A stretch of 64,000 nucleotides of DNA, from the NCBI GenBank assembly GCA_050084515.1, contig CM114271.1, positions 4,898,001-4,962,000 of the forward strand, written 5' to 3'. The notes beneath the pieces are model-generated. The model saw nothing but the letters and a program-made list of their open reading frames with translations, searched no databases and was not told the DNA's origin. Position numbers and translations under genes: made by a program. Shown here one piece after another: positions 7,212 to 60,099 of this stretch. This DNA comes from Blasia pusilla (taxonomy: Eukaryota). Numbering within the stretch: position 1 is the first letter of the stretch; each line of letters begins with the position of its first letter.

Positions 7212-7329
7212 TATTAGTTTCTAGTAGTTATGAGAAAATCAGAGAATTGGTAACAACTTGTTTTCCCACATTGTCTCCAACTATGATGCTTGCTGGAGGG
7301 TTTGTGTACTAGGCAAAACTTAGACATAT

Positions 7330-30774: not shown

Positions 30775-33700
30775 ATGGCGGTCCGTCTCGTTCTCATTCT
30801 GTGTGTGGTGGTAGTAGTGGCAGTGCGGGCGACTGTTGCTGTGAGGGACGAGTCTGCTGCAATCGGTGCGGTCACGTACACACATGAGGACGTCGTGTTG
30901 GAAGCGAGGCAGTCCGAGCTCTTCCAGAAGTGGCTGCGCAGGTTCCCGCGGGAGTATTCGAGTTCGGAATCCGAACGCTCGTATCGTTTCCAGGTGTTCA
31001 AGGACAACCTGCAATTCATCCATGCCCACAATCAAAACTCCGGAGCTTCGTACCGTCTCGGTCTCAACCGGTTCGCGGACATCTCGCACGACGAGTTCCA
31101 TGAGCGCTTCCTCAACGCGTGGTTCAACGTCACGGAGAGATTCTTCCCGCTTCTGGATGCCGGTGGCACGTTCACGTACGCGAACAGCTACATTCCAGAC
31201 TCAGTGGACTGGCGACCCAAAGGTGTACTCGCGCGAGTCAAGGATCAGGGAGTATGCGGTACTGGAATCCACCTCTCGCTTCTCAGGCTGCGTCGGTTGA
31301 CAGTTTTCTTTCTTTCTTGCTCAGCTAGGTGGAAGTTGTCGTCTTTAGGATGTTTTGTCTTAGAAGAACAGCTGAGTGGTTCTGCTATATACTGAGTGCA
31401 GTATGGAAGGGAATCACTAGCTCGAAATCCTCTCTAGTATGACTTTTCGAAAGTCGATAGTTCTACAGTCCTCAGGATCACGAGCACCTGCTGGAAATCT
31501 CCGTTGAGGTGTTTGGTCCATAGCTCTGTGGGTGTGCACTATCATGCATAACACCGAATGAATCGCGAGCTGGAAGTCGTCGCTAGGACGCGCAGTCGAT
31601 CGATGGGTGGTTTTTCCAAGCACACATTGTGATGAATGACGAGCTGGAAGTCGCTGTCGGTATGTGTGGTCGATGGGGCTGTGGTTATTTTACAAAGTAC
31701 AGCATGGAACGTACCGCATACGTTGTCCTTGGATGAATCCACTCCATTCGCACGAGTTGTGGGAACTTTTTGCCCGCTTTTGATTCTTGGTCAAGCGAGA
31801 ACTTTTTCTTGTTTCAGTAGCTGGAAGTCATCTTTCGGAGCTCGCGTGGATAGTGGTTGCACTACGTCCACCATTGACAGAATCACTTATGGGGTCCTCA
31901 GTTCACACTTTGTCCCAGCTACCATGTACTTGCAGCTGCTTCCAACAGCCAAGCCATCGTAGGATGCCTTCCCCACCGTTAGGTAATCGAGGCATGATGG
32001 AATGTGGCAAACCAGAGCACGAACCTGTCAATGCGGTCACCTTTGCCATTCCTAAAGCCTTCACTGGACTTCCCCATTGCAGCTGCTTTAGAAATGGGGA
32101 AAGCCAAAAGGAACTCTTTTCGAAACACTCGAACTCACCGGACTCTGGTTGTGGAGACCACATCGCAGCTGCTCAGAAATAAGCGAGGCTGGAAGAATTC
32201 TTTCGAAGCGCTCGTAGTCACTGGACTTGGCATGGGGAGTGGTGGCCGTCGCAGCTGTCTAGAAACGGGAAAGAGTGGAAGAACTCGTTTTGAAACACTC
32301 AGAAGCCACTGGACTGAACAAGCAAGGCTGGAAGAATTCTTTCGAAACGCTCATAGTCATTGGACTAGAGGAGAGGTGACCATTGCAGCCATTGAGATAT
32401 GTGATAAACTGGAAAATCCCAAAGTTTAAGGACTCCAAACGCACCTTCTCTGCTTACCGAGGTGTGCCAACATTGTGCAGGAAGTTGTTGGGCACATGCA
32501 GTGGTTGCGGCAGTGGAGAGCATCAACAAGATCGTGACGGGAAACATGATCGAACTCTCCGAACAGCAGCTGATGGACTGCAATACGGCCAATGGTTTCG
32601 TGAGTGGGTGTGGAGGAGGTGCTTTGCCCACTGCTTACAACTATATCATCCAAAATGGGGGCATCGACTCCGAAAGCGACTACCCCTACATGGGCCGTGG
32701 TGGGTGGTGCAGTTACAACAAGGTATAGGCTCTTGACCCTTCTAGAATTCGCATCTGTGGGTCTCCAGTCTCCCCAGTCGAACTTTCGATGTAGATGAGC
32801 CCTACATCGTAACGTTCATGGGTGAATAAGGAACGGTTTTCACTACTTCATGCAGTTTACGAAGAGACATCAATTCGATGGATCTAGAGCTTTTCATCAA
32901 GTTTTGTGGCTTCTGCTTGCAGCAACTTTTCGATTGAAAGTCTGCATGCTAACTGCCCTTCAGAGCCACGAATAGTTTTTGGGAAGTCATTTCTAAGAAC
33001 GTCGTGAAATCAAGTTAGATAAAGAACATATGGGAAGAGTCCCCATTGTGGAAATCAAGGTAGAAATGAACCACCAAGAGCAGATCCGCAACGAAATGGA
33101 AACCAATGCAAAGACCATTAGTCAGAAATTAGTCAGAAAGTCCGCATGTGAGAGGCCTCAACGTGGGAAATATTGGAATGTAAATGTGTATCATACGAAA
33201 GAGGATAATTCCCACTACGAATGGTCCAGTTGGGTCACTTTATGATCTAGAAAACTATCAGGCCAGTTGGGCTATGGATCCAAAAAATTATCTATGCATA
33301 CGTCGACCCTTCGATTAAAGGCTCGCCACCTCTCTCTTTGAAATAGCGCTCGACGCCAGAACTCTAGATTTTGGTGTCATTCTAAGACTCTGTCCATATG
33401 GCCGTCTGTCGTGCGTGCAGAGGAACGTGGTGAGCATCAACGGATACGGGAGAGTGCCCCAGAACGATGAGTCTTCCCTGATGAAGACTCTTGCGAATCA
33501 GCCCGCCAGTGTTGGTCTTTCAGCCAGTCGAGAGTTTCAACTCTACTCGCAGGTACGGGATGATTATGCAGTGTTCCGAGGCGAAAGCTTGGAATGGAAT
33601 TCTTACTCTCTGCTGTAAGCTGTCGAATTTCTCCGTTCACTCCAGCTAGAATTCTCGATTTTCTAGCGAACCCCTCCGTTGATCCCAACAACAACTACAA

Positions 33701-34141
33701 TTCAAACGATATGGGTGTGTCGAAGACCTGCAAAGGCTCGTTATCCGTAATCCTCTCTTGAAACCTCAGACTTCAGTGTTTCGAGCTAGTTCTCTAACTA
33801 GGGCGCTCGATTCTTGAGAGCAAAAAAAGTGTAGGAAGGTAGTTTGGAGGTTTTAGGATTGGGCTTGAAGATGGAAGTCGCCTGATGGTGGTCTTTATGT
33901 GCTGATTCTAAGACTTGGTGATTCCATGGATCAGGGAGTTTTCAGTGGACCTTGCGCTCCAACGAAGAACCATGCTGCACTGATTGTTGGTTATGGGAGA
34001 GACTCTGCCTCTGGGCTAAACTACTGGATCATGAAAAACTCCTATGGCACAGACTGGGGTGAAGCAGGATTCATGCGTATTCGACGTTCCCCTTCTGTTT
34101 GCCAAATGCTGGAAGACGTTGGCTACCCCATCAAGAACTGA
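30775..34141 (+). CDS. Papain-like cysteine protease (C1A, I29 prodomain); join(30775..31258,32481..32722,33421..33552,33935..34141), 354 aa
   Basis: Hydrophobic signal peptide; ERFNIN-type ([20 protein letters not shown]) and LNRFAD prodomain motifs; DQGVCGSCWA (catalytic Cys), GCGGG, NHA (His), YWIMKNSYG (Asn). All introns are GT-AG and phases are consistent (1065 nt, no internal stop). Confidence 0.95.
32050..32390. repeat. Degenerate minisatellite in protease intron 1
   Basis: Repeated GGAAGAA(T/C)TC..TTCGAAAC.CTC...TCACTGGACT units. Confidence 0.7.
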
Positions 34142-36479: not shown

Positions 36480-38802
36480 TCTAGTATGATATTTTCTTTC
36501 TTCACTTATTCCTCCCTCTCACCCATCCCAGTCCCTAGATTCGTCCAACTACTGCGCCGGGACTGCATAGTGAGCAGTCTTTGTAGAGAGTTAATTTCTT
36601 AAGACTTCACTGTGTCTTTGGCTGTCACCCTTGTTCGCAAAGGAATTACAATCCTTTGCAAAGTCTACTAAGGAATATAATTACGAGTCCCAGGCTCCTT
36701 TGAATTGGGTCTCTCCGTGGACAGCTCACATTCATGGATTCTCTCAGATAAGGGGGGTTGTTTTGTGAAGAGTTTCTTGGCTGACACCTGACAGCTTCCG
36801 AAAAGCATGATGAGCGCTGACAAAGTATGAGAGAGTCCCAGTCATCTCATGTGGTACTTCACCTTTTGCACACGCAATCATCCCAGAGTTTCACACTCAC
36901 ACTATGTGATGGAGTCTCTCTCATACGGTACTGTCTTCAAATTCTCCTCCTTCTGCAGTGCTGCTGCTGCTGCACCCATCCCAGTCAGTAAAACTTGCAC
37001 GAGGTCTACTACCGTCGCAAGGCTTTGATTCTCACCACTTAAATGAGTACGGTCTCTCTCTTTCTACAAAGCTCTCTGCCAGAGCTGGAACTGTGGGAGC
37101 AGGAGACATTTATTATGGATTGATACTTTGCCAGAGCAGGGGGGAGACGAGAGCATTTGCAGTGACACGACAGCGAGGATGGAACAAAAGATTCAGACCT
37201 TCCTCTACTGACTGTTCTGAAACAGTGGATCTCAAGAACTGTTTTGCAGGGATTCCTTGGTTTGGAACACCACTCGAGTTCAAAGCTGGTATTTATCAGA
37301 GCTTTCGTCACGTCCAGTACCCCACAGTGACTGCCGGAGGTAGCTAGCGGGATGGTAAGAAATTCATTCTGGGCTCCACACTCAGAATTTGTTATTAGAA
37401 CATCTCGGTGAACACTTAAGAGGTTCTCTCAAACACCTTGGATGCGCAACTCTCACTCTATATGAGAGAGTCCCCTTGAATCATAAGAAAAGGAGGATGG
37501 GAACACAATTAAACTCTTGCGCCTTGTGTGACGATGGGGATGAAACCTCTAGTCATTACTTGGTCTCCTGCACAAAATTCACAACACACAGAGCAAGAGC
37601 ATGTGCTGATATTGCTAAGCTGGTAACACCAGAATTGCTCAACCCATTCAGTAGCCTCGATTCATTGCCCAAAGCTGCTGCACTGGTAAGTAATGTCTAT
37701 TGGGGATCCCAATCAGGTAAAGTAGATGGTGTGGTGAAGAGTTTCTTGGTTGACACTTGGAAGCTCCGTTCAAACACGTTGTTTGGTAAGCACACACACT
37801 ATGTGAGAGTGTCTCCCTCCTCTCATATGTTACCTTCTTCACTTGCTTCTCTCTCTACACCCATCCCAGTCTCGAGCACCGTCCAACCAAGGCGCGGGGT
37901 CTATGGTCGCAAGGCTACGGCAGACACTACTTAATGAGTACAGTCAGTATATGAGAGAGCCCCACCTCCATATGATTTCTCCACGCTTTACTACCTTTCA
38001 CCGATCCCTGGCACTGGCACGTCAATGCACCACAAAATCAGTACATGCTCACAAAAATGGGAAGACAGACCATGGAGACACAGCTCGATGATAGGAGCAC
38101 TGCCTTTTCAAATTCAGCTACCATGAGAGCATTAGACAGGAATTCCCTGAACTCTTCCTTGGCCCTCTCTCGAATTTGAGTACTTTTCATATCTGGTAGG
38201 AACCAGGTTGTTGAAATAGCCAAGTTTTTGAACATACTGGTGTGCTTGCTACGATGGATCAACTCAAACAGTTAGTTTCTGATTGCAATTGTGATTCATT
38301 TCGTTCATTCTCGCTTTCTCTCTTCGGCGCACAATGCTCAAGTTTAGAACAGTTAACTTGCGAAAATCTTGCCTTCTTTGGCTGTCACTGGTCTTGGATG
38401 ATCCGACATGTTTAGGTACCAGAACTGTTGTAATTCTATTCATTTAATCATTCTTTCACTCGGAATCTCTACCCAGGTGGAAGCTCTTTATTGCTAACCT
38501 GATATCATCCAAGCTATTCATCCTGCTGAGTAGCGTAGATTCACTGCCCAAAGCTACTGCGCTGTTTGGTGACTTGTTGTGGGGGACCCCAATCAGGAAA
38601 TGTAGTAGATAGTGTGTAGGGACTTTTCTGGCCGATATTTGAAAGCTCTGCACCGAGTTGGTACGAGAGAGTATTCTTCCTCTCATATGGTATTTTCTTC
38701 ACATCTTCCTCTCTCTGCTCCGATCTCAATCAATCTCTAGCACTGCTCAACCAGGGTGACTCCCAAGGCTTCGGAAGGCACAACTTAATGAGGGGTCTCT
38801 CT
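36480..38802 (+). mobile_element. Four 5'-truncated LINE 3'-end fragments (~36480-36580, 36640-37062, 37470-37945, 38450-38802)
   Basis: 37389-37934 encodes CALCDDGDETSSHYLVSC (LINE ORF2 C-terminal CCHC finger) and FLVDTWKLR. Copies share CCCATCCCAGTC-like and CAAGGCT..CTTAATGAG tails, two followed by (TC)n. Confidence 0.7.
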
Positions 38803-42010: not shown

Positions 42011-43366
42011 TGTGGACTATGCTCTAAACATCCATTAACTCTTTCTCATCTCATGCTACCCTTATATTTTCACCTTCTGGTTATATATGAATAATTAGAT
42101 TTATGTATTTTTAATAGCAAATATGGATGGAAAATAAGTCTAGATTTAATAGCAAATCATGAAGAAGTCCAGATTCCTTCATGAAGGACGGTGGATGTGG
42201 TTTGATGACAATATGCAAATTCAAGAATCGAATTGGTCTTGTGTGTCAATTTTAATTCTGTTTTGTTATATGGTCTCGATATACAGGTATGAGTATATTT
42301 TTTTGTGTACATTCACCCGTGTGTTGGAAAGATTAATGGTATTTTTTTTCTAAATGTGGAGAATGATGTAGATTTCATAGTCATATGTGTGCACAAGATA
42401 TCTCTCCATGTACAAGCCCCCTCACTAGATCTTTACAAATACAAAATCTTTTCCTAATATATATTAATAAATTATAATGTATCATCAACACTATGCATCC
42501 TCACTTGCATTGATTTATTATGGTTGCAAAAATTAATAGGATTTTTAAAATAAAAGGGTTGCTCCATAAATATTTCTTAGTTCCAGTTTGCTCGAAACCA
42601 TCATCATCATCATCATCATCATTGTCATGCGCATACACATTGCTGGTCACATCTACACAAAAAAAACCCGGATCTTCCAAACATACGGATAGATCCATAC
42701 ATATAAGAAATGAACTAATGTATGTACGTGAAGACCGAGCAACAAAAATCAGAGTAAAAATGGCTCACCCAGGCCTAAAACTCCACTCATGATTCTACAT
42801 CAACATATTGAGCGGCTTCGAGCCTCGTCCACCCTCCGCTATGAGGAAATCCGAACACTAACACCCTACTTCCTACCTCATACAAGCAAGAGAGGTGCTC
42901 CAACCGCCCAACATGAGAAAGATGGCTTGAGAAAGCCATGTTTCTCCATTACATAGCTTTGAGAAGAGCTAAAAGGCTTTTTCCCTAAAAATAGCCAACT
43001 CGCCGATAGCATCCATGCATAGGTTACCGGCTGGCCCTTGACCTGATCAATATGTCACGAGATGACAAAGACCAAAGATAGGAAAATTTCTAGAAAGAAT
43101 ATTCCCGAAATATCGAATCTGACATCAACTTAATCGGACATCGCAGGACTAAGTTACACCCAACACTCCGCTGGCTTGCTTTGTCATCCATGCGGTAGAA
43201 CTCTACGTGGCAGTAAACTAAGATGTGTCATCATGCTCTCTGTCGTGCGCATACACATCGCTACACAACATACATCGTTATCAACAAAATACACACAAAC
43301 ATGCACGATTCCATGCTTACTTATGACATCCAAACAACGAGATAAGAAGTACCAAAATATCTCCAA

Positions 43367-44578
43367 TAAAATAAGGTCAAATCTCTCTCACAACACCATA
43401 ACTCTCACATGTACATGTGTGCACTCTCATATGTCTCTCTCAATGTCAAATCAAACCCACTCTCCTAATGAGAGGCTTGGGTTACACTCACAAGGCAAGG
43501 GACGATAACTCTGCTGCCTCGTGCCAAGAGGTTCAACAAAGAGAAAATGAGCTCTCAATCTCTCTCTCTTGGAGGTATATCCCCTTCCCTCTCCCAAGCT
43601 CTCTCCTCGGTAACCTATGCTCGCAGGTCACCTCCTTGGATCTTGAACTTAGGAGTAGTTGAGCAACGTTATTTGAGGATGCGACATATGAGATCTGTTT
43701 TGTTGGTGAGCCCCATGCCTACCGAGATGGTTGAGGCAGTGGCTGGGGGCGAGACCCGAGGAGATCGACACACCAAGGGCGATCAAGAGAGAGATCCTTG
43801 GACTTCTTGGGATGTTTTGCAAGTACGCAGGGAGATGGTAGCCACACCATCAAGCGTGGTTCTGGGATGGAGATCCAATTTTGGAGTTGGTAGCAGGTTA
43901 GGAGTCGAGTTTTGTTGTCCGAGATGGGATTGCACCAAAAAAACCACCGACACCCGCGCCGTAGAGTCCTATTGTAGTCACAATGGAGACTTGCGAGCCA
44001 GATATGGGCCCTAAGTTGACAGGAGGAGAGCGGCGCCGGATACACCAGTTCCTTAGGAGTTATAGGAGTTGATTAGCAGTTGCAGACAAAGATAGAGGCT
44101 ACTTCACGCATTCCACGCCCTACAGATGTGAGTCTAGTTCGTGCATTCATGGGATTGGCGAACTTCTATCGACGGTACGTCAAGGGTTTGAGCTCGATTG
44201 CGAAGCCATTGACCTTGCTGACCAAGGTGGATTAGGAGTGGCATTGGGGGGATGAGCCAAAGAGAGCATTTCAGATGCTCAAGGAGAGATTGACGTCCGT
44301 GCCCATTTTGAGAAGATAGATTAGGGGGCATGCTTTTAAGTTGCATACGGCTCAAGGGCCAATTCCCAAAGTGGAAATTCAACTATACTTCAAATGGAAA
44401 CTTACCCAAAATAGTAAGTTTCTATATATGGCTCCAAATAAGCCGAAATAAAGGGAAAATTTGCTCTCTCAGGTTACCCGTGGCCTCAACAGGTCATTCT
44501 TGACCTCATGAGGCTATCCTCTAGTATCTCTATAGGCACTCTACCAGATCTCGCCGATCTATCCTAAAAGTCGTTACA
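43367..44578. mobile_element. LTR (homologue of 58569-59087) split by a ~700-bp pol fragment at 43645-44347
   Basis: 43367-43644 and 44348-44578 align to the two halves of 58569-59087; ends in GTTACA. Confidence 0.85.
43645..44347 (+). mobile_element. DNMT-gypsy pol fragment (post-MTase linker fused to the RT C-terminus)
   Basis: Inverted homologue of 48100-48520 and 47130-47370; reads VRAFMGLANFYRRYVKGLSSIAKPLT. Confidence 0.85.
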
Positions 44579-44889
44579 ATCGTCGTGCGTATACACATCG
44601 CTACACGACATACATTGCAGTCAACGAACATACACAAAAACACGCACAATCCCATGCTAACTCATGACATCCAAACAACGAGACAAGAAGTACCAAAATA
44701 TCTCTAATCGTGCCCCTCGCTGATGGTTAGGTCCCTCTAACTCCAGATGGCGATTTGTCCCTACCTACCATGATATACATCTCTCGGACGCTAAGAGAAA
44801 AAATGCAGGGTGCTCATATGACCCCATCGTTAGTCGCCTTCTTGTCATCCATGTCATAGACACAAGTCAAAATTTAGAACTACCTACTC

Positions 44890-45035
44890 TATGTACATCT
44901 GGGACACATCCATCGTTCCTAAGGGACCCTAGTGGGAGGTGGCGTCAGACATGCCATATGCTATCCTCTCGAACAACCATCATAGACTATTATAGTGGCT
45001 ACACCACGGGCGGAACCACACAACATACATCGTAA
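44890..45035 (-). pseudogene. PHD finger at the pol C-terminus
   Basis: CMLCGSARGVATIIVYDGCSRG*HMACLTPPPTRVP*ERWMCPRCT*: C4HC3 pattern with one Cys replaced by Tyr. Confidence 0.85.
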
Positions 45036-46064
45036 GCTTGCACGAACTACTACTAAGCTCAGATCAACTGTATCGTCAATGTTAGGAAGGTGACATGGCG
45101 CACAGTTACGCACATGGTCCTTCCAAGCCATAGCATCGCGTCCCTCCAATAAGAGAACACTAGATGGAAAAATATCACGCACTCTCAAGATGGTGTGCCC
45201 TACAGTCACATCCAACATCGTGGATGCCATCTGCTACAAGTAGACATAGTCTCCCTGATGAAACCTTCGGACAGTAGGTCGATAACGACCTCCTTGAATA
45301 GTCGCATACCTCAACATAACCCGATGCTGCGCAATCGCCAAGTTCTCAAATGCCATGGGCGTCACTCTCCGAAACAACCAAGCCCTCTGAGAACATGCTC
45401 GCATCCATACATTAGGATCATCAAGGTTCGACACCTCACCAACATCTCGACGAATGCCGTAGGTAAATTTGGCTCTTGGCCATAAAGTAGAAAGTAAGGT
45501 GAGAAAGACGCTAAGGATGCCTGCGTGCTGAATGTGTATCCCATCGCCAACCACGGTAATTGGAGGTCCCAATCTGCTAGGTGAACTCTCTACAAGCCAT
45601 ACTTGCATAAACCTCCCTGCTTCGTCTCCAGAACCCTCTCCGCTAGTCCATCTGGTTCAGGATGATCTCACGAAGTGATGCAGTGTTCGATCAACGCCTA
45701 ATCACACAAGGCGTGAAACGCTTCGTGAAACTTTATACCCTGGTCTGTCAACACCTCAACTGGTCTGCCGTAATGACTCAAAACTCCCTCACTCTCTTTG
45801 TCAAGAAATGCCACCAACTCTATCCACTTCAAGAAGTGCTCGACCATCACCAACACATAACGACTATGGCGCTCCGTCAAAGGTAAATCCAAATTCCATC
45901 TATTACCTAAACCCATGATCGGAAGTGGATGCAACTGTGGAGTCGGAGCATTGAACGATGCCTAGACCCAATCACAAACCATGCATCTGGAAACAAACTA
46001 TTGAAAGTCAATCTGCATGCCTCGCCACCAATATTCACTCCAAAATGACCCAACTCCTCGTGGG

Positions 46065-46376
46065 CAAGGTTTCATGTGGACAAAGTCCATGTCCATGGAC
46101 TTATTTCCATCCTATGGAAGGACTTGTTTGTATGGGCCCCACCTTTCTCTTCTTTCTCATTCCCCTTATTTGCCTTCGTATTCCATACTTCCCCATTTCT
46201 TCCTCCCTCCACCTCCACTCCCTCCTCCCTCATTGCTCCTCCCATGCTTGCCTTGCCTTCCATCATGGATTAAAAGTGTGGATCCTACCTCTTGGAACCC
46301 ATGTCCGTGGATATGTCCAGACTTGTCCATCCATGTCCGTCCTGAGGAAGGACTTGTCCGTTTTTTTGCATCCATT
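46065..46376. mobile_element. Non-autonomous DNA transposon (hAT-like MITE) inserted in the integrase
   Basis: Direct repeat CTCGTGGG(CA) at 46057 and 46377. Removing the insert restores VHHAHEELGHFG. Imperfect TIR CAAGGTTTCA / TGCATCCATT; internal GTCCATGTCC motifs. Confidence 0.8.
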
Positions 46377-48519
46377 CTCGTGGGCATGATGCACCAAATG
46401 TGCTCTTTGTGAAAGATGAGGCACTACATGTACTCTACCATCCTCCTAAACTCACAACACATGTGTCCCCTTCCATTGGAACTGTCAGGCTTGGTGTAGG
46501 ATCTGATCTCACTCTCTAGCATCCACTTTGCTCGCGATGCTACCATTACATAGGTACTCCAAGACTACTCCATCGTCGTGAATATCTCGGCCACCTGTCG
46601 TCTCCTCACCGGCCTCTGGATCGAAGGACTCTCCATCAGACCTCGCCATCAAAGTCTCAGCAATCTGGCTCTCTATAACCAACACGCCCAAAAAGGCTGA
46701 CGCATGCCATCATGGCACCAACTCCTCATCACCCTCACTATGCCAACGAGCTCCAGTTGCATCTTGCTGACTCGGGCATGGGTTACGTCTCAAACCATGT
46801 GCATCCTAGTTGAGCATCCCAAGTCTATGCACCACTTGGAAGTCATACTCCTGCAACAAAAGAGGCCACCTTGCAAGCTTCCCTATAAGCTTGTCCGACT
46901 CCATCAACCACTTAAGTGGCTGATGATCAGTAATGATGGTAAAGGGGTTGCCAAATAGATAACACCTAAATGTGCGACAGCCCACGTCGCAACCAAACAC
47001 TCATCCTCATACAAGCTATACTTAGCCTTTGTAGCGTTGTTCAAGCGACTAGCTTAAGCCACCATGAACTCTCTACCATCATCGTCATGTTGGATGAGCA
47101 TGGCTCCAAGCCCCAACATGCTTGAATCGGTATACAACTAGAACAGACGCCCCTTGATCGGTCTCCTCAATATGGGCGCGAAAGTCAATCTGTCCTTGAG
47201 CAGCTGATCTCCCCTACTCATCCCCCCAGTGCCACTCCTAATCCACATCGGTCAGTAAGTTTAGCGGCTTTGCAATTGAATTGAAACCCTTAACGTACCA
47301 ATCCCATGAATGCACAAACTCGACTCACATTTGTAGGGCATGGAATATGTAAAATAGCCTATACCTTCATCTCATGCACACGAAGGCCACTTCGGTATAG
47401 CGTATGACCCAAATTCTCAATGAGGTAGTAGATGAACTTGCACTTGCCTGGATGTAGCTGCAGCCCATGTAACTGCAATCGTCAAAACACCTCCTCTAGA
47501 TGTCGCTCATGCTCCTCAACCGTGGCGCTAAAGACTACGATGTCATTAATATAACACCTACCAAAATCCAAACTTGCCAAGATCCTATCCATGACCCTCT
47601 GAAACTCAACCGGAGCATTCTTTAACCTAAATGGTAAGAACCGCCACTGGTATAAACAATGCTTCCCGTGAGGATCGACGTCCCAAAATACCGTCTTCTG
47701 CATGTCCTCCAATCTGATAGGCAGTTGATGGATCCTGCTCGAAGATCTAGGGAACTAAAGACCTTTGCATGCCCAACAACATCAAAGATCTCCTCACGGA
47801 TGGGCATGGCATACCTATCGGACTTCATCTGCTGATTGATAGGTCGGTAATTTCCACACATCCGCCTATCCGACTAGTTGCCATGCACATCCTTCTTGGC
47901 GGGCATGACAATGGGAGATGCATACTCTCCATGCGACATCTCCACTAGTCCAGATCTAACCAAGTCCTGGATCCTACTCTGAATCAGAGCACTCTCTATG
48001 TCATTGTACCTATAGGAATGTTGGAAGATCGGCGTGTCACACGCCAACTCAATGCGGATCCCTAGACCCTTTAGGGTACCCAAAACATGCATGTTAAATG
48101 CAAAATGACTCCTATGACTCTTAGGGAATTGGTGTATCCGGCACCACTCTCCTCTTGTCAACTTAGGGCCCATATTTGGCTCCTAAGTCTCCATCGTGAC
48201 TACGGTAGGACTCTCCGATGCGGGTGTCGGTGGTTGCTGTGGTGCAACCCCGTCTCGGACAATAGAACTCCGCTGCCTCCCTACAGCCAACTGCAAACTC
48301 TGATCTCCACGTGCAGTGCCCGCAACCACGCTCGATGATGTGGCTCCCATCTCTTGGCGTCTAAGGGTGTCTCTCCCGATCACCTCTGGTGTGTCGATCT
48401 CCTCAAGTCTCGCCCCCAACCACTGCTTCAACCGTCTCGGTAGGCATGGGGCTCACCAACGCAACAATTGTGATCTGTTTCATCCTCAAATGATGTTGCT
48501 CAACCATTCATGAGCTGAA

Positions 48520-49490
48520 AATCCATGTCAAATAGTTCAGATCCATCGCTTGACCCAAGACATGAGGTCGTGATGCCTCTAAGAGTGACGGTATTGCCGT
48601 CACTCTTGTGGGGAATCCCATTGCTAGCTCTCGCTCATCCGCGTTGGGCTCCACCAACCGTTGTATGTGGTCATCCCAAACCTAGCCAGGTCCGGCCTCC
48701 TTGAATGCATAGGAAGCGGGAAAACTCACCAATGGGGGAAAGGCTGCTCGTGGCATGCTAATCTTGTTGACCACAGTAAATGGTGGTCGATCATTGTGCC
48801 TCATTGTCTGTGATCGACAACCTGGATCCAGAAATGAATCCACCAACAAATCGGAGAGGTGCTCCACTCTCGCATATGCCCTCCAAAAACCTCTTGTATC
48901 ACCAAGTTGGTCCACCAAAGACGCGGGCGATGTGCTCGTGAGCCTTCACTTGTCGCATCCAACAACACTGTCGGGCCGATCCATACGCGCACCTAATGTG
49001 CACTCGTCACTACGCGGGACCTCGAATCATCCAAAATTGGCACATTCTCCAGAAATTTTGTTGGAGAACGTGAACAAGAATGTGAACGAGAGTGATGCTC
49101 TTGTAAGTGTTGCAAGATCCGCATCATCTCCCCAAATAACCTGGACCGAGAGTTTGCTAACCCGCTACCTCGTCCAACACTCGATTGGCCCTAACACGGC
49201 CAACCAGCAATGACCAAGTCTATGGTCCCTACCTGCTCCAAGTCCTACGCCCCCAACAAGGAAATGTCTCTCGATAGGGAACTCTGGTAACCCTGGATGG
49301 AGGACGCAGAGAACAAGTCGGGAAATCGCAGGCGTAACTGCGCCACATGGTGAAGTAAAGCGTTCCTTGCAACATCATCAATCTTTATGTACAAGTACTG
49401 CTGCACGCACACTCATGCCTGCAAAACAACAGCTAAGCCAGTGTTGATCCTCCCAAAGAGATCCAACACGCAAATATCCTCCTCTGGGAT
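48520..49490 (-). pseudogene. C5-cytosine DNA methyltransferase domain (DNMT3-like) within retrotransposon pol
   Basis: Motif I VLDLFGRINTGL (~49436-49469); IV IDLVIAGWPC*G (49191-49223); VI FLENVP (49038-49055); VIII RAHRPRLWWTNL (48903-48938); IX ERELAMGFP (48609-48636); X LGQAMD (48541-48559). Confidence 0.9.
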
Positions 49491-52400
49491 GCATCACCAA
49501 TCGGAGTGGTGTCCAAAGGGATCATAGTAGCACTTCTCGCTACCTCGGATTCCTCTGACCCGTCACCCTCTAGTGCAAACACCTCACTCCACGGTGTCTA
49601 CACATGCTCATCAAATAAACGTTAGAGCTCCTCAATGGAGCCCTAGAGCGGCACCTCTCCTCCATGGGATGATGCGGCTACCATAACACTCCTCTCCCTA
49701 GAGAGTTGAGGCACGCAGATGTCCTCTATATGGACATGCCCTTCAATCAAATCAGAAGGCCACGTGATGGCGATGCTAAAGTTGCCATCTCTCCTAGCCG
49801 TCGCTCGATCACTCCACATGTGAATTGAACGGTAATGAAGAAAGGCATCCATCAACGGAATGCCATCCCGGTTTGTAGGACACTCACTCCTCCTAGTAAT
49901 CCAGGGAAAACCCAATCGGGCCACTATTGCCTTGGCTTGCACCACAAACTGTAGAATGTCTCGAGCGAATCCTCACCACAACCTCATGTGGGTGATATAC
50001 TGTATGGTACTCGCTCCATCCAAGGATGTCTGTATCCGGAATGGACAATGCTCCATATCGGCTCTCGTCAAGCCCAATCCTCTCAATGCCGCTTTCCCCA
50101 ACATCAAGGTTGCGATCTTGAATCCAATAGGACATGCTACGGACTAAAAACTCGACCTCCTTGACTCACCAAGTGGAAGACCTCTCCTTGATTATCTAGC
50201 AACACAACACGAGGAGAAGCCATGGCACGCTCTATCGTGGGTCTAGCGGGGATCTCCGCCATCCTAGCAGTTGCAGCCTGCCATGAATCTGACGTGGATG
50301 GCCCAAGGATAAGCTCTAAGGGCGGGTTCATCACTTCCTCTACAATCACCCTTGAGTGTGACGCCTGAACATCAACTCCACGCTCACATAGCTTAGCGGC
50401 CATAAAACCTCGGTGGGCGTACCTCCCAACATCATAAGATCGGAAGCAGATAATAAAGGAGCGCGGTACACAACAATGGCCATCCCCAACAACGTGCTCG
50501 ACACATGCTCCTCCTGAGCATCAGCAATAGGAGTCGTCACACTCGCTTCTCCCATCGCCCTTTGTGCCTACACACCAACAACATTAACAACTCCCCGGGA
50601 AGTGTGATTAGGACACATCGATGGGGTCCTCATTGCCTCGGACAATGTGAAAGACTAAGGAAGCCTAGTATGTTTCGTGGCTTCCCCTCATTGTGGATCC
50701 AACTCTGCGGCTGCTCCACGTGTAACAAGTGTGGCGGTCTCCATATGGGCAACCTCGCACATCCAACGAGGATCCTCCATATCTCTTGCTACTCCATAAG
50801 ACGTCGATGCCACAGATCTGGCATCGGGTAGCCTCAATGCCATAGCGACAATCTGTTGTTGTAGCTATTGTATCTGAGCAGCCATCCCAGCCTCACGCAT
50901 CGCGTCTCCCTCAATGCATCTAGGTGGTGGGACTCTACCTCCTCCACGGGCAACTTCACCACTCCCTCGGGAAAATCCAACTCCTCGTTCCCTAACGGGC
51001 CCACCTGGTGCACGACCTCTAGGCCCACTCGGACCGGCAACTCGCTGTGGTGCCCTCTCTTTCCCTCGGTCCGGACGTAACTCCGGGTGTAAGGTGAAAC
51101 ACCTGGCGCATGTGTAACCGTATCTCTGAAAGTAATTACACTGATAATCTCCTAGTGCAGCACCATCTCCTGCTCCATGCTGAGGCACGCGTCCATGACC
51201 CTGACGGGTGCAATCGAGCTAGTGATGGGTTCCACCACATGCCCAACAAATAATCATAAGCGGCTGCTGCTGAGCCGCATATGAAGGCGCTAGTCTCTGT
51301 GGCACGGCCTATTGGTATCCTCCCTAAGCTCCTCGTGCCACAGACCTATCTCAGAATCCACATTGCTGCACTGATGGTGTAGGCAATGGTGACTGCTCTC
51401 GCCCAGAACTTGTGGTGGCTATGCTCTCCTCCGCCATGTTGCGCTCAATATTTTCAACGGTCCTAAAAACATCTCTTAATGTAGTGAGGTGTTCATAAGA
51501 AGCACCCCCTCCCGCACCAGTGTCCGTAGGGTTCGGTCGAGCATTGTGTACCATGATTGGATAGTCTGGGACTCTGTCACCCCCTTAGTGACGTTAATCA
51601 ACCGGCGCAAGCGAGTGTAGGCCTCACCCAAATTCTCACTCGGGCGCCTCTGGAAGTCATGGATGCTCCGCAACTTCTCTGTCAGTACTCGTGGTAGCTC
51701 GTCTGCAACTCAGCAAAGAACGCATTCAGTCGAGTTCATCCCAGGTTGAACCTGGGATGAACCCGACTGGACAGTGCAAGTACTCCAATACGAGTTATTC
51801 CTTCTAAGACATTACTGGTGGAAGAGGAGGTAGCCTCTCCTGACCCCTCCTCCTAATGTAGGAACGGCTCCGTCCATGACACATAGTGTGGGTCATAGTA
51901 GAATCGCCATGCCTCAATCTCGTGGGCATATCTGTCGGAGAACTCATGGTGATCGTCCATGAGTGTCCCCTTTAGGTGCTACAACATATCGTTCCATGTT
52001 GTAAACGGGTTGAACTCTCTAGAGTTCCTAGCGTGCTGTGAGTCACACCAACTCCTTAACTCCGTAATGAAGTCGTGTAACTCTATAGTGCCTATAGCAC
52101 CTAAAAACCTACGCAATCCTCTACCCCCTCATCCATCTCGTACTCCCAAGCGGTAGGACCACTAATTGTGTGCGGTGATGCACTAACACACTCCTCTACA
52201 CTCTCCCCCTTGTCTAAATATGACACAGAAGGAGGTCGAGGTCCACCACCTTGCCTCTCAAAGTCCCAAAAGGACGCCATGATGACCCTCATGCCGCTCT
52301 GACGCGATCACTCTCAACCTGGCAAGTAATCACTCAAACTAACATACGGCAATCAATCTACACTCTCTCACTGAGAAGTGTACTGTACGGCAACAAGCAG

Positions 52401-52569
52401 CATGATGCGGCAAATCAACTAGTGTCTTATCATCTCATGAACAACACATACCCTCAAGTCTAGACACCCCACACAAGTTTATGTCCCCTAAACCCATACG
52501 TCAACAATGCTCTTAGTATCTGCACGAAACCCAATATCCTAAATAACTACCTAATACCTAGAATTCCCT

Positions 52570-55500
52570 ATCAAGTACAGGCAAAAGACCAGAATGGATA
52601 ACCTGAACAAATGTCGATCGCACCTTAATAACTGCAAACCTCAACCCCAACTCGCTCATGACAAGAAAATCCTCCTATTATCAAGTTGTACCCCTCTGGT
52701 ACTGAAGATACTCAAATCTCCTCATTATGCGGTGCGGATCCAACGGTACAATGCCGCACTGACGGCACGGAACGGCTACAGAACGGCATGACACTCGATA
52801 ACGGGATGCGGCACTCCGAAAAATACCCTCCTCAATCAGAAATACACATGCTCTACACTTTAATGAAGGAGAGGCTCCATGATCGAGATAGTGCGATGCG
52901 GCCATGAGTAGCACGATACGACAATCGGTGATGCGTTGCGACTACGGGCATCACGACACAATACTCAATCATCGTCGAGTGGCTACCAATCACAACATAG
53001 AAGAATGAAATGAAAAATCAAATACCATCAACCCAAGGTCACCAGCCATCAGTGGTTGATGACGAAACTGCGATGACCGCCACGGCCAAAATAAAGTACG
53101 TGGTGGCGGCGCAAATCAGAGAATCAATGGTTATCGTGGAAGACCATCCATTCCATAATGGCGGAAATGGAAACCAACGGTGGACAACGGCCGAACGCGG
53201 CTCTAAGCGGCGCTAGGCGGCGGCGGCGGCCGACGGATAGAAATATTGGACTGTTGATGGTGATTATGACAGCGACGGCCACCGCCGACACGACTTTCTT
53301 TCAAGCAAATTGGACCTTGACGTCCGAGGAACTCCTCGGGGAGCTTCATTCCTCGACTGCAACAGCCAAGTTTCGAAGAAAGGGTCTTTGATATCGAGCT
53401 CAGCCACAACAATGAATGTCGGATGACTGGCAAGCAACTTATATGCTCCCGGCCGCTCCAGAGTACGAGTATGACACCGAATTTCTGGTAAAGCACAAAG
53501 ATTTGTTGGCACTCGGTTGTGTAACGTCTGATTGCCTTGGCAGGAATGGCTACAAGGCTACTTCGCTATCACCGCCATTGTTTGGACAGTTTTGCAAGCA
53601 TGTGATGACTTTGTTTTATCCTGCTCGTTCTTACTACCTCACAAATAAGCTCGTCAAGATGTGCTATATCCTTTGGAATCAGCACATGGACCCCAAAGCA
53701 CCGGGAGTCGACTTCGCTTCTTTTGTGGATGGGCACGTACGCGCAATGCTAGAAGCACTTCATCGGAGCACGAAGTCATTCCTGTCTCCTTTAATCCATT
53801 TGTATATTCATAAGCAGGAATTGACGGCCGACGAGGCGCTAGATTGGTCGCAAGTCACTCCCGTCCGCTTGCCAAGAAAGAGCGGAACGGTCACTATTGG
53901 GAGCCGCGGAGTCACCCCGCCACGCGAAGCAGCCCCAAAGCAACATCCACATACTTCGGCTTCAAGGAAGGCCGGGGAGTTCACCAAATTGCCAAGACCA
54001 AAGCGCGGCAGGGTCAATTTCAAAACACCCTCAGAACTAGAACCCGCAACTCATGAGGACTCCGACGAGACGCCTCGTGCTAGCGATCACCATCCTGCTC
54101 TTCGTCTCATGTCCCAGATAGCCAACGACATGGTGTGGTTCCTGAATTTGGCTGTCCCAGTCATGAATCAACTTCAACATGTTCTCCACCAGGAAGACAC
54201 AACGGCAGTGGACGAGTATTTACAAGGCCTTGATGACCTCAACTGTAGGGCCCAATCTTTGTCAGAGAACGAAGCAAAGTGGCGGAAGCAAATCTTCAGC
54301 TGCGGGATCAAGAACTCGAAGACACTAAGACGACGCTTCGCAAAGTTCAAAGCGACTTGGTCTAGAGTCAGCACGAAGCACAAAACGCACGCCAATGGGA
54401 GAGCTTGGCGATTAACCTAGAGTGTGGCGCTGATCAGTTAGCTTTGCAGGTCAAGGAAGCTTCGCAATTGATTCAACAATATTGACACCAAATGCATCGT
54501 ATTAGCAACGAATTCAAGAAATTGGCGACACAACATGCTCAGTCTTCAAAGTTGCTTCAAGAACACCAAGAAACAAACAAAGACTTAGTGGCGCAGAGGT
54601 CGGAGGCTACAGGGAGGATTGTTGTCTTGGAGGCAGAACAGAAGCTGTTCAATGAAGTGCAGTTAGACCCGAAAGATGTCAAGGAGTTAGTCGATGAAGC
54701 AGGCAAGACTCTCGATCATCAGATGAGAGAGGAGATTGACTATGTCAACAAACATTGGAAGCGCCAATTTGACAACCATACGAAGTCTCTCACGGAAGTT
54801 GTTCCCAACCTCTCGATTACTCTTGAAGAAATACCACTATTTACTCCATCCGATGTCTTAGTCCAGAATGAAGTATTAGGAAGTTCGCTAGTTGTTAATC
54901 ACACCCCCAACATTATCAACAAACCTTCTACTATTCACGGTCATTTTGCGCCTACACCTGAGTTTGATAGTTTAGATGATACTTTTATGGAGTTAGAAGA
55001 AACATCCTAAAGTGTTCACCGGGGCGGCTCACATTTGAGGGAGGAGGTATGTGATACCCACAATTTTGCACTTTTGAAGAAATACATCTTTTTATTCAAC
55101 GAAGACTTGTATATATATTATGATTTTGATTATTATATATTACTATGGGGAGGAATGAGTAAGATTAAAGTGAATTACAAAGCTCCAAGGACAAGGCAGA
55201 GAGATAGAAAATCAAGGATTTGCCTAAGAGGAGAGGAGAATAAAATAACGAAATCTCAAGACCCAGCAAGAAGCTTCGAAATGACAACGAAGCCCTGCAA
55301 AGCCCTGTGAAGCTCTGTTAAGGTCTGGCTATGAAGTGCTTCGCTCTATAATGAAGTATAACGAAGTATAATGAAGCGTAAGAGAAAGAAGTACTTCGCT
55401 CTTGAATGAAGCACCTGGAACAAGAACAAAGAATGGAGCGCGTCTTGGATCGGAGAAAGAGCTTCATCCTCAAGCGAAGCAAAAAGAGGTCAGACTTAGC

Positions 55501-56270
55501 ATGAGCGAAGCTAAGATTGACAAAGTGATTTCAAGCGACACATAGTTAGAACAGTTAGAATAGGAAAAGACGCAACCCTTTGTATCAGATTGGTAGTTAT
55601 GACAGTTTTTTTCTGCGGATTCCCAGGGATCATAGGAAAAGCAAAGAGTACCATAGATCTAGGTAGTTACAAATGTTGAAGAGACACCAGCTTCATAAAA
55701 AATGCTTTGAATCTTTGGATCACTCTTCCTTTAGAGAGTATTTAAGAAGCGTAGAAGTAGCTATCATTATCATTCTCTTACGAAGTCCTCATGCTGTATG
55801 GTCCGAGCAAGGGAGTAGTACCCTCTCGAGCTTGTATACACTTTGAAGCTTTCTCATTCTTGATGGAGTAGTAAAGCAATCATTCATTCATTCAGATGTG
55901 CGATGCTTATGTCTGAATATTCTTTTTGGGTCTGCAGAGTGAAGAGTGAATCAGGCGAACCTTTCTCATGAATGGAATAATCAACATAAAGTTGTAGGAA
56001 ATCTATTTGACAGAGAGTAGCCTGCCGAGACGGATTGAGTTCCAAAACTAGGAGAAGCCAACTTTCATGTTGAGGTCTCTGTGAGGTTTCTTGATATCGA
56101 GGGAAATCAGCATGAGCATGCTGTCAACTCCACTAGAGAGAATTGAGAAAAGAAAATTTGGTACTAAGAAAGATCCGAATATATTGATAAGATATTGAAT
56201 ATAAATCATACACATTTAAATACAACTATTACAACAGAATTGTAATTTCGAACTCTCTTTTCATCAAACA
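52570..56270 (+). mobile_element. 3' part of an LTR retrotransposon (Tat/Athila-like layout): accessory ORF, PPT and 3' LTR (55050-56270)
   Basis: PPT GAGGGAGGAGG at 55037-55047, 2 nt before TGTGATACC; LTR ends CATCAAACA. Long ORFs lie just upstream. Left boundary approximate. Confidence 0.75.
53416..55010 (+). pseudogene. Retrotransposon accessory ORF of unknown function (frameshifted; C-terminal coiled-coil)
   Basis: ORFs of 334 aa and 172 aa, probably once a single frame. The second is E/K/Q/L-rich and stops 27 bp before the PPT. Confidence 0.6.
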
Positions 56271-57180
56271 ATGATTCTCTTGGGGATCGAACTTAGTAAA
56301 CGACTGTAAAATAGAAACTCTTGTACAATACAATACTCATGGACTAGTCGTGAGACATGGTGTAATGAGAGTCTATGTATCGTCTTATCCCTCTCAACAT
56401 AAAAGTATATATGTTCTCGTACTCCGACCTACAACACTCCAACCAAAGTAGTACTAATCCCTCCAAAGAGATCTAGTATCCGTACACCTTCCTCGGGATA
56501 CTGCCACACAATTGGTGTGGTGTCCAAAGGTGCCAACATCTTCACTCCTAGGGCATGCGGTAACTTTGTGACATCTCACTTTCAAGCATAGTCTTGTTTC
56601 CATGCCTGCCCCATGAGCTTGTTTGCACTCCTCTGTATATCAATGCTCATTCCCCATAGAGCACAAGAAGAAGTATCGCCAAAAGATCTAGTCATGCTTG
56701 CCATCGCATGAGCGTCGCATGCCATTTCTCAAGACTATCCTATACAAGAATATCCTCTACATGGGCGTTCCCATGCAATGAATTTCCATGCCAACATAAT
56801 CTGCCACAATAATTGCAACAGTTGTGGTCGGCTTTGGGAGTGAACCATCAAGTCTCCCTGCACACCGCACGAGTAGCTGATTGGCTCATCCCTCACTTGA
56901 TTTCTAACCTCGTTGATATGAGGCTGTCTCCTCCCAAAAGTCAAGTGTAAATCCTAGGGGATACAATGAGGTATTCCCTACCAAAACATCGTAGGACTCG
57001 GTCGGCATCACCATTGCTTGGGTCCACACCATTGCACTATTAGTAGGATGATAGGGTCGGATCCTCACTACAACCTCATCGTGAGGTATGTACTATGTTG
57101 GGGATGTGCCTCTTAGTGGAGTCTGAATGTGAGACGGACATGGAGAGATCTCACGTTTCCGCAATCCCATCACTATATAT
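56271..57180 (-). mobile_element. DNMT-gypsy copy 3 fragment (protease end, linker, MTase N-terminus)
   Basis: YDVLVG..LYPLGFTLDFWEETASY matches 6490-6566; PIVWQYPEEGVRILDLFGGIST (motif I at 56453-56479); LSLHHVSRL. Confidence 0.85.
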
Positions 57181-57914
57181 TTCGCCTTCCTCCACATAAG
57201 GGATTGAGCTCCTAAATCAAGAAGAACACGCTGCGAGCGATACACGACTCAAGACGGATCAACCAAATGGAAAACTCCATCTTGGTTGTCAAGACAAAAA
57301 ATCCTGAGGAGACGATAACTTCATGATATGTTTTTAATAATAAAAGAAACTATCAATCAATAAGTTGATCTAGTTGTGTATCACGATGGCTTTCATCTAT
57401 TGGATTATGTGGTAGATCTCCATCCTAAATGTTTTGTCTTTATATGTCTCACTTTGCATACAAAAGATTCCATGACCAATAAAACAACATAAATCAAAGA
57501 GTTGAGTTATGCATTGAGACATGTTACGGATGGATTCAAGCCTTTTGCATTGGAAGTATTTAGGCACTTACATGTGTCTATTTATACTTTCCTCAAACAT
57601 ATGCTCATCATTTCCTCTAGAATCACCAAATCAATCTTCTTTATAATCCTATCTTGTTTATTACTAGTTATCATCAATAATTACACAATCTCGGTGACAT
57701 TACAATGTATATAAGCATTGGAATGCCACCAAGACACATTGTAATGGGTAAGAGGTTGGTTATCACCTCTTCCTCCGAAATCTTAGATTATTCTTTCCTC
57801 TTGTTTTATATTGTTTATCTCCATCTCTTCATGGATGGTACAACCAAAGGTGGATAGACAAATATGGACTCTCTCGTTCTTCCTACTATTCATCCCTCAA
57901 GAGAGGGATCGAGA

Positions 57915-58095
57915 ATTTCCACAATTTTTGAGGAAGACAGGGTTTTTGGAAGGTAAATTCATTCATAATATCTCCTAAGCAATTTTTACAGGAAGAGAGG
58001 ATTTTTGGAAGGTAAGTCTGTTCATAACATCTCCTATGCAACTTTTTGAGGAAGAGAGGGATTTTAGAAGGTCATTTGTTCCTAATATCTCATAT
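57915..58095. repeat. Three ~60-bp tandem units
   Basis: TTTT..GGAAGA.AGG..TTTT.GAAGGT...TTCATAA.ATCTC repeated. Confidence 0.75.
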
Positions 58096-58568
58096 TCCCT
58101 AAAAATCGCTCAGCAATGGAAATTTTGCAAGATCAACCATAACTTTTTGCTCACAACTTTAAGATCTATGACGATGTTTAATTACTTTTTTCATTCAACT
58201 TTCCCACAAAAATTGACGGGTACTATCATGCAACCCTTCAAATTTGCACTCCTAGGATAAAATCGGCAGCGCTTCCGCGCTACTTTCTTCCACACAAAAC
58301 TTCAGACCTATAAAATCATAAACCAACAAGCTACTTGGTGAGCACTGGCATGGGGAAATCCGCCCCCAAAATTCATCTCTAAAGAAATTTGGGAAGCGCT
58401 TCTGTGCGCCACTTTTCCAAACAAAAAAATCGGAAATGGAAACAACAAAAAAAGTAGCGCTTGCTCCGGTGAGCACTCCCATGAGCCGCTAAATGGGGAA
58501 CACGGTCCCCAACCTGCAACAACAGCGAGCTCCTCCATTGAAGCTCTCTCACCCTCTCATTCTCTCTT

Positions 58569-59087
58569 TGTAAAATAAGGTCAAATCTCTCAAAACACCA
58601 TAGGTCTCATATGTGTGCACTCTCACATATCTCTCTCAATGTCAAACCAAACCCACTCTCCTAATGAGAGGCTTGGGTTACACTCACAAGGCAAGGGATG
58701 ATAGCTCCGCCGCCTCGTGCCAAGAGGTTCAACATAGAGAGAATGAGCTCTCAAGCTCTCTCTCCTAGAGGTATACTCGGCCCCTTCCCTCTCCCATGCT
58801 CTCTCCTCGGTAACCTATGCTTGCAGGTCACCTCCTTGGCTCTTGGCCTACTGTAGCGGGTCAAGGGCCACTTCCCAAAGTGGAAAGTCAACTATATTCC
58901 AAATGGAAATTTACCCGAAATAATAATTTTCTCTTTATGGCTCCAAATGAGCCGAAACAAAGGGGAAGCCTGTTCTCTCAAGTTACCCGTGGCCTCAGAA
59001 GGTCATCCTTGACCTCCTAAGGTTGTCCTCCGGTATCTCTGAAAGCGCTCTATTAGATCTCGCCGATCTATCCTCAAAGTCGTGACA
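58569..59087. mobile_element. Solo LTR (~520 bp)
   Basis: TGTAAAA...GTGACA termini; second copy at 43367-44578. No adjacent PBS or PPT; TSD not clean. Confidence 0.8.
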
Positions 59088-60099
59088 TCTCCATAAAGAA
59101 AAATAAAACCTATATTTTTGTATTATCGGATTGTAATAGACTTGTTTGCAAATATGATATGTTCCTCTATTTGAAATTTTTTTGTATTGTCATATTCTCA
59201 AGTCAAGCAACGTAGATCATGGAAAAGTAAAAAATTATCTCTAGAGAAAGTAATGAATCCCACAAATTTTGTTTTATTTTCATATTATTTTCCTTGTGTT
59301 ATTTTCCTTACAGTAGAGTCTTTCACTTTCATCTCAATTGAGGATTGGGCATGATGAATTTGGGTCATATAATAGGGCACATCAAAATATGGCTTTAAGG
59401 CTGGACGTCTACTTTTGTAACTTTTTTTACGTCTGATATCCGTACTCTGGAGTGGGGTGATGCAAGAGGTGGATACGCACCCCTAATGTCCCCTACCGCC
59501 ATGGGATGTCTCGCAATGTCATTGATTTTCTTGGCTCTGTTTGACTCTAACCCCGCTTGACTTGTATAAATAATGCTCGATGCTACCCCCGAACACGCAT
59601 TTTCTTGGCCTAGCTTGGTGACTTTTTGCTGCTCAATCCGCTATTGAGTGCACACTTGTGAATCCATTGCACACTCAACTTGCTGCCCTTTCCACACTCG
59701 TTGTTGCTTTGCTTGTGTATGGAATTTTCAATTATTTCTATGAATTCTTGCTGCTCAATTTGCTGATGAATACTTGTTGCTGTTGTTGATTTCTTGGCCC
59801 GCTCTACTTGCTTTCTTGCCTCACTTTGGATGAAATTATCTCATGCAAAATTTTTATTGTTGAATGGGTTGCTTTGATTTGGCTTGTTGAACCTGCTACC
59901 CAAGCTAGGTGTTGCCTTACTTTGACTTGCTATGTAGGAAAAAATTTTCTAGTAAGAATTTCTTTTGAAATCTTGCTTTTCAATCTGCTTCTCATTACTC
60001 CATCCGCAAAGCAAGTAAGTAATTCCACCACCCCCCCCAAATCTTCTTTTCACTTGGAAAAAATTTCAAATTACTTTTTTTTGAGTTCATAGATAGGTG

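Follow-up and report, generated by a model that had tools for sequence, protein, structure and literature searches.

Our data show that a 64-kb stretch of the Blasia pusilla genome (contig CM114271.1, positions 4,898,001 to 4,962,000; hereafter the window, in whose own numbering all coordinates are given) contains, on its minus strand, a decayed Ty3/gypsy-type retrotransposon with a complete C5 cytosine methyltransferase (MTase) domain inside pol. The element is very probably an old, dead copy of a high-copy family, in which a DNMT3-like MTase is an ancestral module of the lineage that was kept by selection. An original prediction, made from the letters of the window, had noticed MTase motifs in the pol region of a Gypsy element, and this observation is real.

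A complete methyltransferase domain in two reading frames

Translation of 49800-48300 on the minus strand recovers a complete, non-permuted C5 MTase domain at 49490-48508. In the standard numbering, motifs I, IV (with its Pro-Cys), VI (ENV), VIII, IX and X form the canonical order of these enzymes, and all six are present in this order at the places where they had been predicted:

49469-49437, minus strand: motif I, VLDLFGRINTG
49220-49188, minus strand: motif IV, DLVIAGWPC-stop-G
49049-49041, minus strand: motif VI, ENV
48935-48903, minus strand: motif VIII, AHRPRLWWTNL
48636-48610, minus strand: motif IX, ERELAMGFP
48558-48541, minus strand: motif X, LGQAMD

Motifs IV to VIII share one frame, as had been proposed, and motif I lies in this frame too (frame A, 49490-48885), with motifs IX and X in another (frame B, 48879-48508) and a single frame break near 48880-48885. 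The reading path is interrupted by six in-frame stops, at 49415, 49247, 49193, 48995, 48684 and 48510. Aligned with intact relatives, the two pieces together tile the entire domain. The hidden Markov model check suggested with the original prediction gave a significant result: with stops replaced by X, the translation of 49490-48687 reaches 29.9 bits (E 5e-7) in a comparison with PF00145, whose curated cut-off is 22, and the same family was also found, at 27 bits, in a Pfam scan of whole frames. The frame-B piece taken alone (81 residues, motifs IX-X) matched no Pfam family. A phmmer search with the window MTase against 1.84 billion representatives returned 682 matches at E<=1e-3, of which 278 reach E<=1e-10, so that, as judged from sequence, the match is far above chance level.

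The methyltransferase as an integral module of pol

The domain stands in a gag-pol arrangement that can be followed through the decayed copy. A Pfam scan of the three minus-strand frames of 44400-52800 left gag, protease and the integrase core of this copy uncalled at E<=0.01, and these parts were therefore assigned by homology to relatives:

50610-52101, minus strand: gag with decayed CCHC zinc knuckle(s), homologous to gag in L019 and to residues 17-536 of Marchantia P0160
49969-50403, minus strand: aspartic protease, 30-36% to the protease region of P0160, P0169 and L019
48508-49490, minus strand: DNMT3-like C5 cytosine MTase, PF00145, motifs I-X
47296-48242, minus strand: reverse transcriptase (RT), RVT_1 E 5.3e-14, 62-70% identity to L019
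46916-47306, minus strand: RNase H, RT_RNaseH_2 E 1.6e-15, RT_RNaseH E 4e-11
45300-46970, minus strand: integrase with zinc-binding region and DDE core, 57-66% identical to its counterparts in P0187 and L019
44892-45029, minus strand: PHD finger, C-terminal end of pol, PF00628, 27.7 bits against a cut-off of 24

The order is gag, protease, MTase, RT, RNase H, integrase, and the MTase thus sits between protease homology at 50403-49969 and an RT that begins at about 48242, the flanks named in the original prediction. Mapping with relatives by tblastn places the MTase homology at 49487-48412 and the integrase stretch at 46970-45593. Among the relatives, Pfam Asp_protease_2 is found upstream of the MTase in P0009 and P0186, and the pol of L046 likewise terminates in a PHD finger.

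Whole-genome sequencing reads of the same species (run X11, about 2 Gb, aligned at 80% likeness) cover the MTase as they cover the rest of pol. Depth over the two MTase bins is 1933 and 1332, as compared with 2726 over RT, 1770-2480 over the integrase and 1760-1850 over gag; it is 1002 over the protease-MTase linker and 19 in the lowest bin of the stretch. The same arrangement is seen outside this genome. Metagenome contigs were scanned with an alignment of relatives, by which 466 of 599 candidate stretches were confirmed, and 80 loci, all of them MTase-bearing, were kept. A protease lies within 1.5 kb upstream of the MTase on the same strand in all 64 loci that hold both, and RT follows downstream of the MTase by no more than 2 kb in 53 of the 54 loci where both are present, the exception (L041) being interrupted. 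The continuous open reading frame (ORF) from protease through MTase, RT and RNase H to integrase that had been sought in a consensus exists among natural relatives: in L019 one frame with two stops runs from gag through two zinc knuckles, protease, MTase, RT and RNase H into the start of the integrase, and P0277, P0109 and P0273 are uninterrupted proteins of 2188-2374 amino acids with gag, protease, MTase, RT, RNase H and integrase, to which a precomputed match adds a PHD finger in P0277. In Marchantia P0169 and P0175 the MTase precedes RT-RNase H, and in P0186 the protease precedes the MTase. Read depth and the conserved order in related loci bear out the placement of the MTase in a Gypsy pol between protease and RT, and support its being an integral pol module of the retrotransposon, not a capture private to one copy.

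The window copy itself is a dead fossil. Its gag has several stops and frame changes, and alignment with the near-intact L019 reveals, in the copy as a whole, at least 13 changes of frame together with about 41 stops (a sum over high-scoring segment pairs, some of them overlapping). Where it differs from reads of its family in run X11, it has A/T against G/C at 1009 places and the reverse at 453, an excess that we read as the bias expected from the decay of methylated cytosines. A low-complexity segment of 320 bp between RNase H and integrase (46057-46376) is skipped in 277 genomic reads and in RNA reads; since it is absent from DNA as well, it is not an intron, and many family members lack it.

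Affinity to DNMT3

When the MTase protein of the liverwort Calypogeia (P0163) was compared by phmmer with all PDB sequences, DNMT3A, DNMT3B and DNMT3C came first (E about 1e-10 to 5e-9), followed by tobacco DRM (4e-7), Arabidopsis DRM2 (2e-4), HaeIII and HhaI (about 1e-3) and DNMT2 (0.009). An AlphaFold model of the L019 MTase domain, built on a 50-row alignment, has a mean pLDDT (predicted local distance difference test) of 96.5, and a Foldseek search with it ranks complexes of DNMT3A, 3B and 3C first (E 8e-20, template modelling (TM) scores 0.74/0.82, 21% identity). Across an alignment of 50 sequences, the catalytic motifs IV, VI and VIII vary hardly at all. By sequence and modelled fold, the MTase appears closer to DNMT3 than to DRM, DNMT1, DNMT2 or bacterial enzymes among solved structures. 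It shares the canonical motif order with DNMT3A and 3B, unlike DRM; it differs from them in being about 21% identical, longer between motifs VIII and IX, devoid of PWWP and ADD domains, and part of a retrotransposon polyprotein.

Selection and transcription

Selection was estimated by the Nei-Gojobori method on codon alignments. The ratio of nonsynonymous to synonymous substitutions (dN/dS) in the MTase is 0.15-0.18 when L019 is compared with six copies from another sublineage, at dS values of 1.7-2.1 that are near saturation, and 0.08-0.31 among L066, L068, L076 and L079 (dS 0.08-1.17). These values indicate that the MTase has been under purifying selection between lineages and was therefore kept while the lineages were active.

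Three stranded RNA-seq runs from the same species give reads that span the entire coding part, with a depth of 23-64 over the MTase and 166-234 at the 3' end. The first mate falls on the plus strand in more than 10 times more read pairs, which by the usual library convention indicates sense transcripts, and the strand ratio reverses, as expected, over an inverted fragment at 43544-44087.

Comparison with known elements

The closest counterpart is KnitGypsy-Dnmt3 of Klebsormidium nitens, which has a DNMT3-type, non-rearranged, intron-less domain in its Gypsy Pol ORF (PMC5890265, de Mendoza et al. 2018). According to the same paper it bears an integrase, its repeats follow the plan A-coding-B-A-B as in DIRS elements, and the Ka/Ks of its domain is under 0.2 (PMC5890265). 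The window family shares with it the DNMT3-type domain in Pol, the A-coding-B-A-B plan (described below) and purifying selection. The two differ in that KnitGypsy-Dnmt3 has a charophyte host and few copies reported, whereas the window family has liverwort and moss relatives and is very abundant in the reads of its host. SymbioDIRS-Dnmt3 of Symbiodinium also has a DNMT3-type domain in its Pol polyprotein, as the window family does, and its de novo CG methylation was demonstrated in yeast (PMC5890265). It is, however, a DIRS element with a tyrosine recombinase, whereas in the window element a DDE integrase goes together with TG...CA ends and target-site duplications (TSDs). No Phage_integrase match, as would mark a tyrosine recombinase, was found in the three minus-strand frames of 44400-52800, and the window integrase is homologous to rve-bearing relatives. 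With DIRS-like split-direct-repeat elements in general the window element has the A-coding-B-A-B plan in common, but its ends and TSDs are of the type made by integrase-mediated insertion.

A 2026 preprint names 'streptophytes (Gypsy-DNMT3)', and PMC12344493 mentions 'streptophytes', citing the 2018 paper. The available parts of the text of PMC5890265 mention no bryophyte element. Our literature searches turned up no MTase-bearing Gypsy element from bryophytes or from any other land plants, and the supplements of PMC5890265 and PMC12344493 may list such elements.

Another arrangement is found in Gypsy polyproteins of the green algae Haematococcus, Monoraphidium and Chromochloris, in which the MTase follows RNase H (RT-RNase H-MTase-integrase-PHD), as opposed to its place after the protease in the bryophyte type. 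Identity between the two types is 36-42% in the MTase, 36-44% in RT-RNase H, 37-44% in the integrase and 38-42% in the integrase end with the PHD finger. Among 14 long representatives that were scanned, eight have RT-RNase H before and/or integrase-PHD after the MTase, two have a zinc knuckle or protease before it, and four have the MTase only. Closterium is of the protease-first type. One polyprotein of the green-algal type (P0232) carries the NCBI label of a bacterial metagenome-assembled genome (Minisyncoccia) and is probably from a mis-binned eukaryotic contig.

We built a FastTree phylogeny, without bootstrap, of 193 MTase domains, with sampling seeded by our own queries; domains that covered less than 85% of the L019 domain were excluded. 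On this tree the 116 and 44 rows of known placement need one change, the 33 unlabelled rows being ignored; given the lack of bootstrap and the query-seeded sampling, one old acquisition with a single later rearrangement can be offered as a lead but does not count as a result. Tentatively, and with rather less than even confidence, one might picture one ancient Gypsy lineage with DNMT3 and PHD across the green lineage, in chlorophytes, Closterium, liverworts and mosses, in which the MTase moved once within pol and which is among the most abundant, still transcribed repeats in at least one land plant. If the chlorophyte elements with the other placement are the same lineage, as the data suggest, the acquisition of the MTase would be very old.

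Possible role of the enzyme

Several points weigh against reading the MTase as an ancestral, selected module of an element family of the KnitGypsy-Dnmt3 kind. The window copy is unable to make the enzyme, given its six stops and frame break: the catalytic Cys codon is kept and the very next codon is a stop, at a site that is intact in aligned relatives. An ORF of at least 600 amino acids is present in just 2 of the 80 related loci, so most copies are decayed. Within one large decayed subfamily, dN/dS of the MTase rises to 0.45-0.91, with somewhat lower values for RT (0.26-0.74), as expected when most differences have arisen after insertion, and the L019 estimates suffer from the saturation noted above. 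As to transcription, strand sense rests on library convention, and just 14-19 of about 6500-6900 reads per RNA run are at least 99% alike to the window copy, so that almost all of the RNA stems from other copies. Finally, the window family appears to belong to the same kind as KnitGypsy-Dnmt3 as judged from the published description of that element, and methylation by the KnitGypsy-Dnmt3 domain was undetected in yeast, a result that its authors call inconclusive (PMC5890265).

In active copies the MTase would be made within the gag-pol polyprotein, and so would accompany RT and integrase at the sites of cDNA synthesis and insertion. There it might carry out de novo cytosine methylation, either of cDNA of its own element or of the insertion site; methylation of the element's own new DNA seems the most economical reading. 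The PHD finger at the end of pol probably reads histone tails.

A competent enzyme might instead act on another substrate, such as element RNA or host DNA in trans, or the domain might be a non-enzymatic module for DNA binding or chromatin tethering. Such a role would fit with the same fold being used by DNMT2, a tRNA enzyme; moreover, in the parts of PMC5890265 at hand, DNA activity is demonstrated for no Gypsy-DNMT3, and its authors raise RNA methylation for another retrotransposon DNMT. The nearest enzymes by sequence and fold are nevertheless DNMT3A/B/C, far ahead of DNMT2 (E 1e-10 versus 0.009), and a purely structural role would not require motifs IV, VI and VIII to be nearly invariant. 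We consider these alternatives unlikely in comparison with methylation of the element's own DNA.

Cytosine methylation is the chief means by which plants silence transposons, so a family with its own de novo-type MTase turns the usual picture round. If the enzyme is active, transposons and not the host would encode a large share of the potential for de novo cytosine methylation in such genomes, and the elements might set their own epigenetic state on arrival. The kind was known before from one charophyte (freshwater) alga and is now shown to be present, abundant and transcribed in bryophyte-grade land plants, where the genetics of Marchantia and Physcomitrium could be used to probe the role of the enzyme.

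Limits and repeat plan of the element

The limits originally proposed for the element (44579-52300) proved too short. It spans 43241-59087 on the minus strand, 15.8 kb, starting with TGTCACG at 59087 and ending with CACGACA at 43241. From its 5' to its 3' side it comprises:

59088-59091: 5' TSD, 4 bp (GAGA on the minus strand); the same bases abut the start of repeat A1 and the end of repeat B2
58571-59087, minus strand: repeat A1, 5' terminal, 84-89% identical to A2 (43367-43645 and 44348-44578)
53336-58570: extra DNA atypical of the family, about 5.2 kb, depth 19-700 as compared with 1000-3000 in the coding part
56324-57314, minus strand: fragment of a second related element within this extra DNA, with protease, linker and N-terminal MTase part (tblastn with P0160 residues 610-934, 37-44%)
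52102-53335, minus strand: probable remnant of the 5' untranslated region, with intermediate depth (about 500-560)
44709-44725, minus strand: G-rich polypurine-like tract directly upstream of B1, a putative plus-strand primer site
44582-44708, minus strand: repeat B1, 87% identical to B2
43367-44578, minus strand: repeat A2, matching A1 and broken up at 43637-44348
43241-43367, minus strand: repeat B2, 3' terminal
43237-43240: 3' TSD, 4 bp

Self-comparison gives the repeat plan A1 - coding - B1 - A2 - B2 on the coding strand. The same plan is found in two relatives, L066 (A at 6086-6377 and 14934-15225, B at 14757-14941 and 15226-15410, TSD GGTC) and L046 (A at 7065-7401 and 15818-16154, B at 15699-15813 and 16154-16268, TSD CATA), which measure about 9.2 kb from A1 to B2 versus 15.8 kb in the window. 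All three elements examined have TG...CA ends and a 4-bp TSD. None of them carries two identical long terminal repeats (LTRs), one per end; the 5' end bears A and the 3' end B-A-B. The internal B1-A2 junction has the sequence of the two element ends joined, with two bases between them, and the integrated form resembles ordinary LTR-internal-LTR DNA that has been circularly permuted. The polypurine tract precedes B1, not A2; the bases around it are conserved between the window and L046, and L066 has a G run at the same place. ARAGORN detected no tRNA genes within the 64-kb window, and we recognised no primer-binding site.

Read depth over A1 is about 1200-1500 and AT-rich host DNA begins at 59088; left of 43241, 1829 reads diverge from one another (agreement 0.35), as expected at the end of an element. 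Between A1 and gag, which are separated by about 1.15 kb in L046, lies the low-depth DNA of 5.2 kb with the fragment of the second element. One may ask from this whether the repeat at 58571-59087 comes from another, truncated element, for which the fragment at 56324-57314 is a candidate, the MTase element being itself 5'-truncated near 52300-53300. This is rather improbable: an identical 4-bp TSD stands beside both 59087 and 43241, and A1/A2 (84-89%) and B1/B2 (87%) are equally diverged, which fits a single old insertion as it would be predicted to look.

The insert that breaks up A2 (43637-44348) is an inverted fragment, about 0.7 kb long, of a related element, with pieces of the MTase end, RT and RNase H; it matches 48525-48108 and 47367-47130 in inverted orientation at 73-76%. 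Nesting therefore does occur in the window, here and at 56324-57314, yet the notion that the MTase stretch is itself separate DNA nested in one copy, be it a host DNMT3 gene fragment or another inserted element, can hardly be right, as depth over the MTase matches the rest of pol, order and spacing are the same in the related loci counted above, protease, MTase and RT share one frame in L019 and in the uninterrupted proteins, and no flanking repeats surround it. The TSD-flanked insertion absent from other members, named at the outset as the outcome that would overturn the finding, is thus not what the reads and loci show. We rejected the MTase as a chance match, as a private nested insertion and as a disrupted host gene.

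Within the extra DNA, two plus-strand ORFs at 53416-54420 (334 amino acids) and 54486-55010 (174 amino acids) match no Pfam family above threshold; the plus-strand ORFs of 53336-58570 give a weak BRE1-like coiled-coil hint only.

Relatives and genomic setting

The window MTase is 57% identical to Calypogeia fissa P0163 and 52-55% identical to Marchantia polymorpha proteins; of the ten matches in this comparison six carry a name, in each case that of a liverwort. Sphagnum also holds relatives of P0004, the closest representative. At 30775-34138 on the plus strand the window holds a gene for a papain-like cysteine protease with an I29 propeptide, at least four exons and long introns, which resembles Streptophyta clusters. 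That the window comes from a land-plant genome, as its sequence had suggested from the start, is supported by the relatives in Calypogeia, Marchantia and Sphagnum together with this streptophyte-type host gene, and a bryophyte-grade land plant is a reasonable reading of the host from sequence. In public databases proteins of MTase-bearing Gypsy elements stand as hypothetical proteins; one is labelled a cytosine MTase by UniRef.

The two most intact relatives are markedly poor in CpG, with observed/expected ratios of 0.27 (L019, 609-6809) and 0.32 (L066, 9710-13822), and decayed copies, that of the window included, have ratios of 0.54-0.68. A lower ratio in intact than in decayed copies is the opposite of what decay alone would lead one to expect. 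Long-term CG methylation of the active lineages, or CG avoidance by them, may lie behind it.

Rfam at gathering thresholds gave nothing within the 64-kb window. Mobile DNA is present elsewhere in it: a further fragment of an MTase-type Gypsy element with gag and protease at 4795-6790 on the plus strand; an unrelated Ty3/gypsy element without an MTase match at 870-2966 on the minus strand; a Helitron-like Pif1 helicase 2B domain at 26241-26750 on the plus strand; and a zf-RVT domain like that of non-LTR retrotransposons at 37359-37934 on the plus strand.

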